Shown here: positions 5,172 through 8,468 of the stretch, in pieces | Position numbering within the stretch: position 1 is the stretch's first letter | How the letters are laid out: each line of letters opens with the position of its first letter | DNA from: a bacterium | GTDB taxonomy: Bacteria; Zhuqueibacterota; Zhuqueibacteria; Residuimicrobiales; Krinioviventaceae | Assembly: GCA_963674595.2 (NCBI GenBank) | Contig: CAXXFV010000023.1 | Span: forward strand, 416,001 to 480,000 | Direction of reading: 5' to 3' | Length of the DNA: 64,000 bases | Translations under genes and position numbers: made by a program | The notes under the pieces: model-generated | Told to the model about the DNA's origin: nothing | What the model saw: the letters and a program-made list of their open reading frames with translations, nothing else | Databases searched by the model: none

Positions 5172-5173
5172 AG

Positions 5174-5247
<74 letters not shown>

Positions 5248-5321
5248 AAGATTTTATTGACTTTTGTTTTTAAGATACCTGCATATTTCAAGATATCTGG
5301 TAGAAAAGTCATTAGAAAATT

Positions 5322-5350
5322 AATTTAGCACAATTATAATTAAAATTCAA
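5322..5350 (-). promoter_or_regulatory. Putative sigma70 promoter of tRNA-Arg
   Basis: Minus strand TTGAAT-17 nt-TAAATT about 75 nt upstream of the tRNA. AT-rich context, so could be chance. Confidence 0.45.
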
Positions 5351-5603
5351 GATAAAATTATTTTATTCTGTTACTTTTTATCTTTAAAATTCCAATTTCA
5401 CGGGGACTAAATATTAAAATTTATATCGTGATAACAGCCTCTTTTATCCCTTTATTTTAGTATATATTGATAAAAGTATCATAATATTATGGGAATGATT
5501 TCCTTTTATGATTTTTTAATGTTAATCCAAAACGAGGATTTATTATTCAAGCTTTCAGATCGTGTAATTGATAATTAACTTTATCCGATCAAACTTAAAT
5601 ATA

Positions 5604-5632
5604 TTGACAGGACCGTTCGAAAAGAGCATGAT
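5604..5632 (+). promoter_or_regulatory. Putative sigma70 promoter for the leader ORF/TonB receptor unit
   Basis: TTGACA-17 nt-CATGAT. Confidence 0.45.
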
Positions 5633-5745
5633 CTGTTGATTTTTAAGGAATGAACTTTAGCAAACAAGAGTTGTAAGTAAGTGTTGGAAAATTGAATATT
5701 TTTTTTAACATTAAGGTCGAAACGAGATAAAAAAATAAAGAGAAT

Positions 5746-6063
5746 ATGTTTACAACAATTCAAAACAAATCTTTTAAAAATCATGCATATCTTCTGATTG
5801 CGTTCGCCTGCCTTTTGCTTCTGTTAAGTGCAGGGCAGGATTTGTTTCACAATCACGAACCCGATTCCAAGACACACCAGGATTGTCCTGCCCATCAGAT
5901 TTATCTCATGTTGAGTGCAGCAATTGTGTGCGACTGTGCGTATTGGCTTTTTTATCTCATTGCCCTCATTGTCAAATGGATTTTTCGCCTGGCGAAATAT
6001 TCAATCTCTTATACTTTACATCATTCCCGCGCTCCGCCCTTTCAATTAATGAAAATTGCATAG
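5746..6063 (+). CDS. DUF2946/CruR-like leader protein with C-terminal RAPP arrest motif
   Basis: N-terminal hydrophobic segment, HNHxxxxxxHxxCPAH loop, second hydrophobic segment with CDC, then SRAPP at aa 94-98; lies directly upstream of a TonB receptor. Confidence 0.8.
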   Translation: MFTTIQNKSFKNHAYLLIAFACLLLLLSAGQDLFHNHEPDSKTHQDCPAHQIYLMLSAAIVCDCAYWLFYLIALIVKWIFRLAKYSISYTLHHSRAPPFQLMKIA

Positions 6064-6093
6064 ATCTAAAAAATTTTTCAAAAATTGAAAGGG
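6037..6093 (+). promoter_or_regulatory. Hairpin sequestering the TonB receptor Shine-Dalgarno (translational attenuator)
   Basis: CCCTTTCAATT (6037-6047) is the exact reverse complement of AATTGAAAGGG (6083-6093, covering the SD). Inner TGAAAA (6050-6055) pairs with TTTTCA (6075-6080). Confidence 0.75.
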
Positions 6094-6101
6094 ATGTAAC
6101 C

Positions 6102-8468
6102 ATGTCTTTATATTTTAAAAACTGGTCGTATCTTATTGCCTTTCTATGCCTGTTTTGTATTGTATCTTTGTCGTTCGGCCAGTCGACCTATGGAAGTATA
6201 GAAGGCATAGTTGTGGACAATCACAATAATCCTTTGATTAGTGCTGATATTTTGCTGCCAGCTTTGGAACGCGGGGCAAGCACCAATCGAGAAGGGAAAT
6301 TTCAAATCAAACAAATCCCTGCAGGGACTTTTAAAGTTGTTGCCCGATATATTGGATATCAATCAATAACACAAGATATTACGGTTGTCGGTGGAAAATC
6401 CAGCCAGATGCAATTTTCGCTTCACCAATCTGTGCTGGAATCGGAACCTATTGTGGTAACCGGAAGCCCAATTGCGTCTGATCCATTAAGTTCTCCTCAA
6501 GACATAAACTATATATCCGGACGAGAAAAGATCCGGCTGCAATCCACATCTCTTGGAAAAACCATCGAATCCATTCCCGGTATTTACAATATGTCTGCCG
6601 GATCGGTGGCAGGAAAGCCTATCATTCGCGGTCAGACAGGTGAACGCATCCGTATCCTGAACGACGGAGTAGCCCAGGAGTATCAGCAGTATGGCGAACG
6701 TCATGCACCTAACCTGGATCCCTTTAATGCAGAGCGGGTGGAAATTATCAAAGGTGCGGCCAGTTTGCTCTATGGTTCCGACGCATTGGGTGGAGCTGTC
6801 AACCTGATTCCCAACCGGTTTCACATGTCTTCCGGCAATGAAGCGGATTTTAACGGTTCGTTTACAAGTGCATGGAATTCGAATAACAATGAGCTGATGA
6901 CGGGTATTAAATTCGGTGCGTCTTCCGGTAATTTAGGATTGACCGGATCGCTGGTGAGGAAAAGCGCCGGCAATTTTCATACACCTGATATAGCAACTTT
7001 TTTGGAAACCGGAAAAAACGGTGATCCGAAATTTACTGATGAAATAGATAATACTGATTTTGATCAGATCAACGGTTCTTTAGCGGCAGGATTATTGACC
7101 AGAGCAGGTCTCTTTTCTGTTCATTATGATCATTATTTTAATGAAAATAATTTTCTTTTACCTGCCGGAACGCCTATCGGGCTGAGGCTTGAGAACCAAA
7201 CTATTTTTACCAAGGGCAATATGCCCATGGGGCGTTTTATTTTTAAACCAAAGTTGAGCTTCCAACGCAATCACCGTCAGGCAGCCAAAGCCGGACAGTC
7301 ACGTGATGTATTGCCTGACTCGGCTGTTGTAGATTTAGTACTGGATGTGTATACCGCCCGTTTTGACGTTGAGCATATTGACATTTCCCGTTTTTCCGGA
7401 ACAGTCGGTGTGGAAGCTAAATATTATGATCATGAAAATAACGGTAAGGTACCTCTTCAACCGACCGGACATTTTACCAATATTGCCATGTTCGGATTTG
7501 AAGAGTGGCAGGCGGAAGAACTCACTTTGAATTTCGGGGCGCGCTTTGATCATCGTTCCCAAAAATTCATTGCGTCGTCTTCCAATCCTTTGTTGCCGGT
7601 AGACGATGAAAAAACCTTTTCGTCTTTTTCCGGCGCTTTGGGAGCTTCTTATAAATTATCGACTATGTTGACACTGGCCGCAAACCTGGGTCGGGGATTC
7701 AGAACGCCCAGTTTTTATAATATGTATGTTTACGGCTACCATGGAGGTGTTTTCGCCTATCAAATCGGTAATCCGGATTTAAAGAATGAAACATCGCTGG
7801 ATATGAGCGCCTCGCTGAGACTGCGCAGCCGGCGTGTTGAAGCCTCGGCAACGGTCTTTCAGAATAGAATTAATAATTATATTTTTCTGTATAATGCACC
7901 TAATCATGAACTGGCACCAGGGGGAGAAACCTTTGTTTTTGCCCACGATCAGGCTGATGCGGTGCTTACCGGTTTCGATATAAGTATCAGCGCTACCGTA
8001 TTGGACTGGCTGGTCCTCAGCGCCAACGGATCGACGATTCGCAGTGATTTTGCCAGCGGACCTCATGATGGAAATGAACTTCCATTGATGCCGGCAGATC
8101 GTGTCTGTACGCAAGCTCGATTCCTGCTGCCCGGTACATCCGTTTTTCATTCTCCTTATATTCTGTTTAATTTAAAACATGTAGGAGACAAGGATGCTGC
8201 CGGTATTTACGAACCCTTTGGTCAGTTTGATGATGGTATCGGTCCAAATATTCCTTTTGGTGTGGCTTCTACAAAAGCTTATACCGTATTAAATGCCGGA
8301 TTTGGTTTTGATTTAAATATTTCGAAACGATTCATTAACATAGACCTGGAAATCACTAATTTGCTGGATAATGATTATAGAGATTTTCTGGATACGTATA
8401 AAGGCTATACCCTGGCACCTGGCCGGAGTGTAAATTTAAAATGTAATGTGGCTTTGAATAGTAATTAA
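6102..8468 (+). CDS. TonB-dependent outer-membrane receptor, probably for a metal (ZnuD-like), with N-terminal CarboxypepD_reg-like domain
   Basis: True start likely ATG 6102 (SD GAAAGGGA, signal peptide). IVVTG TonB-box-like segment, plug motif RVEIIKGAASLLYGSDALGGAVN, GNPDLKNE, APGRS C-terminus. Confidence 0.9.
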   Translation: MSLYFKNWSYLIAFLCLFCIVSLSFGQSTYGSIEGIVVDNHNNPLISADILLPALERGASTNREGKFQIKQIPAGTFKVVARYIGYQSITQDITVVGGKSSQMQFSLHQSVLESEPIVVTGSPIASDPLSSPQDINYISGREKIRLQSTSLGKTIESIPGIYNMSAGSVAGKPIIRGQTGERIRILNDGVAQEYQQYGERHAPNLDPFNAERVEIIKGAASLLYGSDALGGAVNLIPNRFHMSSGNEADFNGSFTSAWNSNNNELMTGIKFGASSGNLGLTGSLVRKSAGNFHTPDIATFLETGKNGDPKFTDEIDNTDFDQINGSLAAGLLTRAGLFSVHYDHYFNENNFLLPAGTPIGLRLENQTIFTKGNMPMGRFIFKPKLSFQRNHRQAAKAGQSRDVLPDSAVVDLVLDVYTARFDVEHIDISRFSGTVGVEAKYYDHENNGKVPLQPTGHFTNIAMFGFEEWQAEELTLNFGARFDHRSQKFIASSSNPLLPVDDEKTFSSFSGALGASYKLSTMLTLAANLGRGFRTPSFYNMYVYGYHGGVFAYQIGNPDLKNETSLDMSASLRLRSRRVEASATVFQNRINNYIFLYNAPNHELAPGGETFVFAHDQADAVLTGFDISISATVLDWLVLSANGSTIRSDFASGPHDGNELPLMPADRVCTQARFLLPGTSVFHSPYILFNLKHVGDKDAAGIYEPFGQFDDGIGPNIPFGVASTKAYTVLNAGFGFDLNISKRFINIDLEITNLLDNDYRDFLDTYKGYTLAPGRSVNLKCNVALNSN

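Follow-up and report, generated by a model that had tools for sequence, protein, structure and literature searches.

In the literature searched, copper is the one metal for which gene control through a nascent leader peptide has been demonstrated to date, in CruR and CutF. CruR (Bp2923) of Bordetella pertussis, a member of DUF2946 (PF11162), is the leader of cruR-bfrG-bp2921; copper sensed via its CXXC motif relieves a ribosomal stall at the motif RAPP, Rho then terminates transcription, and the spacing of CXXC and RAPP, with 45 residues between them, is conserved in DUF2946 (PMC9426467). In Rhodobacter capsulatus, copper prolongs a stall on CutF, the DUF2946-like leader of cutFOG, melting the stem-loop that shields the Shine-Dalgarno (SD) sequence before cutO, and CutF acts only in cis (PMC9973294; bioRxiv 10.1101/2025.02.05.636593). 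RAPP and RGPP are versatile arrest motifs resistant to elongation factor P (EF-P), with RSPP being partially permissive; a toeprint of CruR assigned its Pro-Pro codons to the P site and the A site, and a 2025 survey located upstream open reading frames (uORFs) with RAPP or RGPP before "TonB-related" genes across Gram-negative phyla (PMC12992588). A further protein, ZrgD (DUF2607, PF10795), is encoded in the Zur-regulated zrg zinc-uptake operon of Vibrio (PMC9817125). Here, we analyze a 64,000-nucleotide stretch of bacterial DNA (the window; contig CAXXFV010000023.1, positions 416,001 to 480,000), in which a 105-residue leader open reading frame (ORF) with RAPP near its C terminus is followed by the gene for a TonB-dependent receptor.

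Sequence comparison indicates that the leader ORF is a real, conserved gene of a family without a name, and we consider it probable that it encodes a nascent-chain-type regulatory sensor controlling the downstream receptor. With slightly more confidence still, we regard an arrest-operated SD switch as its likely mode of action. The locus combines the setting of CruR, an uptake receptor, with the RNA device of CutF. Both precedents had been invoked in a preliminary description of this DNA, and both are real systems confirmed by the literature (PMC9426467; PMC9973294; bioRxiv 10.1101/2025.02.05.636593). The principle is thus known from CruR and CutF; what appears to be new here is the His3Cys set of putative ligands, the links to Znu genes and the predicted use of the stall codons as an anti-SD.

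The elements that the preliminary description ascribed to the leader, a 105-residue ORF with a transmembrane or signal segment, a His/Cys loop, a second hydrophobic segment and RAPP, are all present in the sequence. Lys8 and Lys11 precede the first hydrophobic stretch, the loop region reads H35-N-H37, H44 and C47-P-A-H50, and C62-D-C64 lies inside the second hydrophobic stretch. The P98 codon is CCC (6037-6039), from which seven further codons lead to UAG at 6061-6063. AlphaFold2, run on the alignment, predicts a helix at residues 7 to 29, a loop at 35 to 47, a helix at 48 to 90 and an unstructured tail with RAPP, at a mean predicted local distance difference test score (pLDDT) of 88.4; the loop sits between the two predicted helices. 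The receptor ATG lies 38 nt past the leader stop, at 6102-6104, and the end of the feature had been placed correctly at 6104. Searches of Pfam and NCBIfam with the leader returned no family at threshold; HTTM (16.4 bits) and HmcD (11.9 bits) appeared as noise only.

A word-indexed search recovered nine homologs of the leader (34 to 63% identical; E values of 5e-31 to 2e-16), and a profile of these nine found, among 1.84 billion representatives, 139 proteins with E values of 1e-3 or lower, 26 with 1e-10 or lower and 5 with 1e-30 or lower, almost all of 90 to 110 residues. A 144-row profile run against a 5.8-billion collection gave 18 matches, with no Pfam domain and no name beyond "hypothetical protein." Within the phylum of the window, 50 of 167 genomes contain the family, or 34 of 105 when only good-quality genomes are counted, as do 11 of the 18 genomes of the window's own taxonomic family; related metagenome-assembled genomes carry the labels KSB1, Neomarinimicrobiota, Caldithrix and "Cytophagia." Motifs were counted in 143 sequences, a 760-residue repeat protein (P0069) having been dropped. 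One locus, L011, was a false match that lacked the motif and was removed from all counts.

Only H35 and C47 are invariant in the 144-row alignment (mean column identity, 10%); five further residues, N36, H37, R95, P97 and P98, are conserved in at least 90% of the rows. HNH occurs in 128 of 143 relatives, and the gap from HxH to Cys comprises nine residues in 127 of 142; around this Cys (n = 142), His stands at C-3 in 118 sequences, Asp, Asn or Glu at C-1 in 124, and Pro at C+1 in 125. The conserved set of candidate ligands is H35, H37, H44 and C47, together with D46 and P48. H50, C62 and C64 vary among the relatives. Since the residue at C+3 changes from one relative to the next (Tyr in 37, His in 34, Phe in 27, Cys in 17 and Leu in 13 of 141 with the motif), the CXXH emphasized in the preliminary description is not a family feature, and its C62-x-C64 likewise has to be given up as a conserved element.

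The arrest motif, in the 135 relatives with both motifs, is RAPP in 93, RGPP in 18, RSPP in 15, KAPP in 6, HAPP in 1 and another form in 2, so that Arg, then Ala, Gly or Ser, then Pro-Pro accounts for 126 of the 135; eight relatives are truncated or lack the arrest motif. The distance from Cys to Arg is 48 to 50 residues in 127 of the 135. An N-terminal hydrophobic segment was found in 130 of the 133 members scored, and the second segment is present in 109 and clearly absent in 10 of 136. Past Pro-Pro, the tail mostly comprises 1 to 8 residues, with a maximum of 69, and in some loci it is the translated region of the ribosome-binding site (RBS); selection therefore appears to end at Pro-Pro. 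At loci L002, L003, L004, L016-L018, L020, L023 and L028, the leader lacks a stop codon ahead of the receptor gene and runs on for 30 to 48 codons, across RBS and ATG, with the RNA motif AAAAUUUGAAAGGG being translated as QNLKG. Such read-through tails suggest that ribosomes seldom pass RAPP or that the tail is free of protein-level selection.

Beginning with the P98 codon, CCCTTTCAATT (6037-6047) is perfectly complementary to AATTGAAAGGG (6083-6093), and the minimum free energy (MFE) structure of 6020-6110 (RNAfold) contains both the 11-bp helix over the SD and the 6-bp inner stem described previously, at -17.6 kcal/mol (z = -2.66; an equal or better fold was obtained for 2 of 200 shuffles). 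For the 5' arm and its cognate RBS region, the pairing energy is -19.8 kcal/mol, a value equaled by only 2 of 2,860 other RBS regions of the genome (mean, -7.1 kcal/mol; standard deviation, 3.1). The organism uses SD pairing: GGAG occurs in 23% of the -20 to -4 regions of 2,860 long ORFs versus 2% of control regions, and a G peak lies at -9 to -11 before the starts of the genome's long ORFs. GAAAGGG is thus a credible SD. The 5' arm holds CCUUUC, identical to letters in the 3' tail of the 16S rRNA, which ends in ...CACCTCCTTTCT.

When 6022-6049 were held unpaired, the cost of opening the RBS (6086-6107) fell from 14 to 20 kcal/mol to 7 to 12 kcal/mol, depending on the segment folded, and in the model, a ribosome terminating at UAG 6061 leaves the outer helix free to re-form. 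No intrinsic terminator was found on the plus strand at 5200-6300, and Rfam at gathering scores returned, for the upstream and intergenic regions of 19 loci, no riboswitch or known RNA, only a tRNA. The contigs of four related DNA runs, wherever they cover the RAPP codons and arms, have these unchanged save for one difference at 6086; X3 and X5 span the stretch, and X9 ends at 6038, in the first codon of the 5' arm, and resumes at 6179. Most differences among these contigs fall at 5704-5735, in the 5' untranslated region, and there is too little variation for covariation at the strain level. At 6086, one contig of run X4, at a depth of 2, carries G in place of T, which would disrupt the A6044-U6086 pair; an assembly error may be the cause.

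Across the family, comparison identifies the predicted anti-SD/SD pairing as a shared trait. The DNA of relatives was taken from reference genomes, metagenomes (28-row alignment A3) and genomes of the phylum; 48 nonduplicate loci were left once the duplicates L044, L045, L046, L049, L055 and L057 had been dropped, and L017, L018, L021, L026, L034, L036, L040 and L042, being near-identical to kept loci, stood outside the pairing counts. For 20 of the 48 loci, the start was picked by an automatic rule, which took the earliest ORF of at least 100 residues (at least 40 if it ran off the locus end) and its first ATG. The next long ORF begins 70 to 108 nt past the Arg codon in most loci, read-through leaders included. 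When the stretch between the Arg codon and the next start is folded, the Pro-Pro codons, or the few nucleotides following them, pair in the MFE structure with the purine run before the start, even across 160 to 390 nt (L019, L033, L035, L009, L041 and L010). The arms differ in sequence, reading CCCUUUCAGAU / AUUUGAAAGGG in the main clade, CCUCCUUUGCGGAACUC / GAGUUCUGGAAAGGAG in L025 and CCUCCUG / CAGGAGG, 388 nt apart, in L033, with further versions in L013, L031, L037, L039, L041, L009 and L010; related loci are not independent, and at least 10 different arm sequences occur nonetheless.

A duplex of -10 kcal/mol or lower forms in 39 of the 48 loci. In these 39, the median start of the 5' arm is at -2 nt (range, -6 to +7) relative to base 1 of the A-site (second Pro) codon, and the median end of the 3' arm is at -6 relative to the ATG. 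Cognate arms average -14.2 kcal/mol versus -9.9 kcal/mol (standard deviation, 0.44) for permuted partners, a cognate value reached by none of 5,000 permutations; for the 28 hand-checked loci, the averages are -15.5 kcal/mol for cognate and -10.9 kcal/mol for swapped partners. In the main clade, analyzed with 17 sequences and 13 pairs, 86% of the cells pair, five pairs are changed on both sides (a result reached by 4 of 500 shuffles), and pairing drops to 59 to 68% when the partner is slid by one column. Moreover, AAAUUUGAAAGGG is kept at the nucleotide level in this clade, even inside the read-through leader ORF. The double-sided changes and the advantage of cognate over swapped arms indicate that relatives keep the pairing through changes on both strands, with nine of the 48 loci missing it.

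Considering these data, we propose a model in which we infer the stall at RAPP, the binding of a metal by the loop, the identity of that metal and the polarity of the response. First, the leader would be made as a membrane-inserted helical hairpin whose short outward loop carries His35, His37, His44 and Cys47. The ribosome would then stall at R95-A-P97-P98, with P97 (6034-6036) predicted, by analogy to CruR, to occupy the P site and P98 the A site. Since the footprint of a bacterial ribosome extends about 12 to 15 nt downstream of the P-site codon, the stalled ribosome would reach to about 6049 and cover the whole 5' arm (6037-6047), the strand otherwise paired with the receptor SD (6083-6093). 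As in the SD-sequestering stem-loops of the secM-secA and cutF-cutO type, the helix covers the SD, and its 5' strand falls within the predicted footprint of the stalled ribosome. With the RBS uncovered, the receptor would be translated (ON). Once the stall is released, the ribosome would translate seven codons to UAG 6061 and leave, upon which the hairpin would re-form and mask the receptor start (OFF).

In this scenario, a metal on the His3Cys loop would set the length of the stall, the loop at arrest being about 50 residues from the peptidyl-transferase center and thus just beyond ribosome and translocon. Zinc would be the likeliest metal, and it would shorten the stall, which is the likely polarity for an uptake receptor; given a switch, we find it somewhat probable that metal turns the receptor off. 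A more far-reaching version of this model we put forward tentatively, as a possibility on which we would not rely. The leader would be the first zinc-sensing arrest peptide, its His3Cys loop at the turn of a nascent membrane hairpin reading periplasmic zinc while still attached to the ribosome. The RAPP stall would be released by force, with the fixed distance of 48 to 50 residues serving as a "ruler," and the arrest codons would double as the anti-SD. This phylum-wide regulator of three kinds of envelope uptake genes would form one superfamily with DUF2946 (copper) and DUF2607/ZrgD, in which the loop sets the metal specificity.

The case for zinc comes from the genes beside the relatives. A paralog in the same genome (98 residues, ...HNHQPDFRDHESCP...KRGPP; L013, 1495-1791) starts 18 nt past the znuB stop, in a co-oriented cluster outside the window (L079, 5849-11347) that comprises znuA, znuC, znuB, the leader, a 151-residue protein, which is a lipoprotein, and a TonB receptor of 738 residues. 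Its GGUCCUCCC pairs with UAGGGAGA before the next start at -15.9 kcal/mol. The ZnuA of this cluster has a His-rich loop (HKSHSHKVQGHSHDHDG), its best solved match is Synechocystis ZnuA (2.1e-31), followed by Lbp, AdcA and Escherichia coli ZnuA, all of them zinc proteins, and it carries His at three ligand positions, which we take to be the zinc type. In two other clades, at three loci (L034, L035 and L042), the leader is followed by a 385- to 437-residue protein without assignment and then by ZnuA. Because of the paralog in a Znu cluster and the ZnuA genes behind leaders of other clades, we favor zinc as the ligand, and the putative His3Cys-plus-Asp loop suits it, yet our confidence in zinc is no better than evenly balanced. 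The proposal of a non-copper metal (Zn, Ni or Co) in the preliminary description therefore gains from the Znu context of the relatives and loses the support it drew from CXXH.

For the receptor of the window itself, orthologs stand behind leaders in 12 other loci (55 to 71% identical). Its best solved relative is ZnuD, in the plug region only (residues 112 to 295; E value of 5.7e-21). It scores 120 bits against the ZnuD model NF038289 of NCBIfam, whose cut-off is 950, and 51 bits, far below the cut-off, against the NCBIfam copper model.

Like CruR, the window leader is encoded by a short uORF immediately preceding a TonB-dependent transporter gene, and its product would likewise be exported or anchored in the membrane. 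Both leaders combine a metal motif that includes Cys with an RAPP close to the C terminus, and for both, the proposed logic is that metal relieves the stall of an uptake gene. The number of residues between metal motif and RAPP is similar, not identical (45 in DUF2946, 47 to 49 in the window family). CruR has CXXC in place of HNH-x6-H-x-D-C-P and, unlike the window leader, no second hydrophobic helix; it acts through Rho-dependent termination with a G+C-rich unstructured spacer, whereas the window has an SD-masking helix; and its metal is copper, as opposed to the likely zinc of the window leader. With CutF, the leader shares the nascent exported chain, the metal motif and a Pro-rich stalling C terminus. 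CutF differs in its CxxxC and its EF-P-dependent PPP stretch, in controlling a detoxifying multicopper oxidase through a copper-induced stall, where the window has an uptake receptor as the controlled gene, and in that only in the window are the arrest codons themselves the anti-SD. ApdA, ApdP and SecM also have an R-A/G-P-P core near the C terminus of a small localized protein upstream of a co-oriented gene; the peptides studied monitor protein export, unlike the sensor proposed here. ZrgD resembles the leader in being a protein of about 100 residues, without assigned function, in a zinc-uptake setting.

Like the DUF2946-type leaders CruR and CutF, the leader has a hydrophobic N terminus and a co-oriented gene downstream, here for a TonB receptor, with Znu genes beside its relatives. 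Its RAPP, followed by 7 residues, is likewise separated from the metal motif by a conserved spacing; in place of the CXXC of DUF2946 it has C47-P-A-H50. Membership in DUF2946 itself found no support in the hidden Markov model search, in which the leader had no match at an E value of 1 or lower and family members matched below threshold only, in 8 of 144 cases (best, 19 bits and an E value of 0.0025, against a PF11162 gathering score of 23.7 bits). No DUF2946 protein was found in the window's genome, in the genome behind L011 or in 150 genomes of the phylum of L011, and none of the 167 genomes of the window's phylum exceeds the cut-off. Two of these weak matches, P0127 (19 bits) and P0067 (17 bits), align with DUF2946 over its C-terminal half, and a search with P0127 returned P0127 alone. 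DUF2607 gave no match for the window leader, matches in 2 of 144 members and none at the cut-off of PF10795 (24 bits) in the 167 genomes; P0094 matches its profile end to end at 22.5 bits, and a DUF2607 cluster is among the look-alikes of the window family in a protein atlas. The window family, DUF2946 and DUF2607 may be one superfamily of metal-related RxPP leaders.

A literature search found no paper on the window family or on a zinc-responsive arrest peptide. The accessible text of PMC12992588 yielded no sensor motif, RNA structure or description of the family, its source-data gene lists, which may hold members, being outside the scope of the search.

Several points weigh against our interpretation. 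A look-up of RNA runs covering the stretch returned none. The automatically picked downstream starts in 20 of the 48 loci may be wrong. The nine loci that miss -10 kcal/mol are L005, L030, L051, L053, L054, L065, L068, L072 and L073, and in the 28-locus test, L003, L004, L027 and L028 pair no better with their own arms than with noncognate partners of their clade. CCN CCN codons are inherently complementary to an SD, so that swapped partners still average about -10 kcal/mol and part of the pairing comes for free. Even with the stalled ribosome modeled, ViennaRNA still gives weaker alternative pairings of the SD (probability unpaired, 0.03 to 0.32). The simple ON/OFF picture may differ in the read-through variants, where a released ribosome would itself cross the receptor RBS. 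A confident helical hairpin (pLDDT of 88) is equally expected of a stable small membrane protein. The top NCBIfam scores of the receptor are for heme/hemoglobin subfamilies, at 155 and 150 bits, far below the cut-offs, and the locus in the window has no Znu gene, no recognizable Zur box and no adjoining metal gene.

The alternative that survives best, one we nevertheless consider unlikely, keeps the switch and changes its ligand, to copper, as in CruR and CutF, or to heme or iron, or reverses its polarity, with the ligand lengthening the stall as in CutF. Copper is also bound by His and Cys, and C-x-x-C in 17 of 141 relatives, together with the weak DUF2946 matches, would suit it; no copper or heme-utilization gene adjoins any annotated locus, and Znu genes occur in three separate clades, the ZnuA of the paralog's cluster being of the zinc type. 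The heme subfamilies that lead the NCBIfam matches of the receptor could speak for heme, with the reservation that every one of these scores lies far under its cut-off. The receptor consensus also has a conserved FRTP...H547...NPEL stretch, which we presumptively liken to the FRAP/NPNL boxes of heme receptors and count for heme, and the Cys-Pro of the leader, a heme-regulatory motif, is invariant or nearly so. Reversed polarity has a precedent in CutF, whose ligand induces the stall instead of relieving it, but ligand-induced expression suits a detoxifying enzyme more than an uptake receptor.

It is rather improbable, in our view, that the leader is instead a small and stable membrane protein with a function of its own, perhaps binding metal as a partner of the receptor or the Znu system, with the hairpin only coupling receptor translation to leader translation and RAPP being a pause without sensing. 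Any translating ribosome would open the helix, stall or no stall, and the confident two-helix model and the constant position of the family next to, and co-oriented with, envelope uptake genes would be expected of such a protein as well. Yet the sequence outside the metal motif and RxPP varies freely, some members lack the second hydrophobic segment, and the C-terminal tail of 1 to 69 residues is in some loci a mere translation of the RBS region. The fixed distance of 48 to 50 residues from Cys to Arg has no obvious meaning for a mature protein, and ordinary proteins are reported to avoid RAPP-like motifs strongly (PMC12992588).

Less probable again is transcriptional control of the CruR type, in which a ribosome stalled on the leader would keep Rho from terminating transcription between the two genes, leaving the SD pairing a secondary role. 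CruR, the closest characterized leader before a TonB transporter, does act through Rho (PMC9426467), and the two modes could coexist. The conserved RNA feature in the window family, however, is the SD-covering helix and not an unstructured C-rich stretch; the spacer between leader and receptor is A/U rich, no terminator-like site lies on the plus strand at 5200-6300, and in many loci the leader ORF overlaps the receptor start, leaving no untranslated room for Rho loading. A chance ORF with a chance hairpin in an A/T-rich spacer, for which the base composition and the 2 of 200 shuffles that match the -17.6-kcal/mol hairpin could be cited, is refuted by the conservation of the family, its fixed spacing and the recurrence of the pairing with other sequences.

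If the sensor and the arrest-operated SD switch are as we propose, the family would extend nascent-chain metal sensing from copper to (probably) zinc, with an unusually economical RNA design in which the stall codons serve as the anti-SD. In only about 360 nt, it would also offer a compact and testable system for studying how the peptidyl-transferase center is informed of a metal bound outside the ribosome. The lineages that carry the family are uncultured and little studied. Much of this class of leaders escapes the current Pfam models, its members being annotated as "hypothetical protein" or left uncalled.

Table 1. Coordinates of the leader, its predicted elements and nearby features in the window
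Feature	Position	Strand	Basis or remark
Leader ORF, 105 residues	5746..6063	+	RAPP-type family without a name; homologs and representative clusters
Predicted N-terminal transmembrane helix (signal anchor), codons 7-29, after K8/K11	5764..5832	+	AlphaFold2 helix 7-29
Candidate metal-binding loop H35-N-H37-E-P-D-x3-H44-x-D46-C47-P48, codons 35-48	5848..5889	+	Conservation, model
Second hydrophobic segment, codons 52-80, within predicted helix 48-90	5899..5985	+	AlphaFold2, hydrophobicity
R95-A96-P97-P98 codons CGC GCT CCG CCC, predicted ribosome-arrest site	6028..6039	+	Sequence, conservation
5' arm / predicted anti-SD, CCCUUUCAAUU	6037..6047	+	Fold, pairing comparison
Inner 6-bp stem, 6050-6055 x 6075-6080, with 19-nt loop holding the leader stop UAG (6061-6063)	6050..6080	+	MFE fold
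3' arm, AAUUGAAAGGG, containing the receptor SD GAAAGGG (6087-6093)	6083..6093	+	8 nt before ATG
TonB-dependent receptor, 788 residues: CarbopepD_reg, Plug, 22-strand-type barrel	6102..8468	+	Domain search
Promoter-like site TTGACA, 17 nt, CATGAT	5604..5632	+	Consensus match only, 10/12 positions
tRNA-Arg (anticodon TCT)	5173-5247	-	About 500 nt upstream of the leader, opposite strand

The promoter-like site upstream of the leader is weak, given that the region holds 6 such sites versus 5.3 expected from shuffles. A search for a Zur/Fur-type operator at 5250-5760 gave A/T-rich imperfect inverted repeats only, and no box shared between the window and the znuA upstream region was evident by eye. 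In L002, L016-L018, L020, L022, L023 and L032, a TTAGC-N-GCTAA palindrome lies within a conserved GTTAGCTGCTAAATGAATGA, 25 to 35 nt before the leader ATG. This GTTAGCTGCTAAATGAATGA could be an operator or part of a promoter; it is absent from the region upstream of the leader in the window. Among the other neighbors in the window, a DeoR regulator lies downstream, whereas the genes for a GlcNAc epimerase and for a small membrane protein lie upstream.

Three architectures occur behind the leaders of the family. In the first, as in the window, the leader is followed by the TonB receptor; in the second, a 150- to 190-residue uncharacterized protein stands between the two; and in the third, the leader is followed by a 385- to 466-residue uncharacterized protein, which may be an undescribed envelope component of zinc uptake. 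The latter protein had no significant match in Pfam or NCBIfam, with subthreshold matches to an OmpL-like porin (L034) and a beta-propeller (L051). It was seen after the leader in L034 (3629-4783), L035 (3516-4724), L042 (3381-4691), L051, L066, L068 and L070-L073, and ZnuA comes after it where the locus extends far enough.

Three more small ORFs of the genome end in RAPP or RGPP and belong to a different, His-rich and Cys-free family with motifs such as NGH.HK...FHAHPF...HTH or similar; together with the leader and its paralog, they bring the RxPP leaders of this genome to at least five. They lie in L014 (989-1878, minus strand), about 84 kb upstream of the window, and in G000:C16 from 140413. 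Two of them stand in tandem before a TonB receptor with CarbopepD_reg and Plug domains, and the second of the pair has CCUCUGGU behind its Pro codons, a complement of ACCAGAGG ahead of the receptor ATG.

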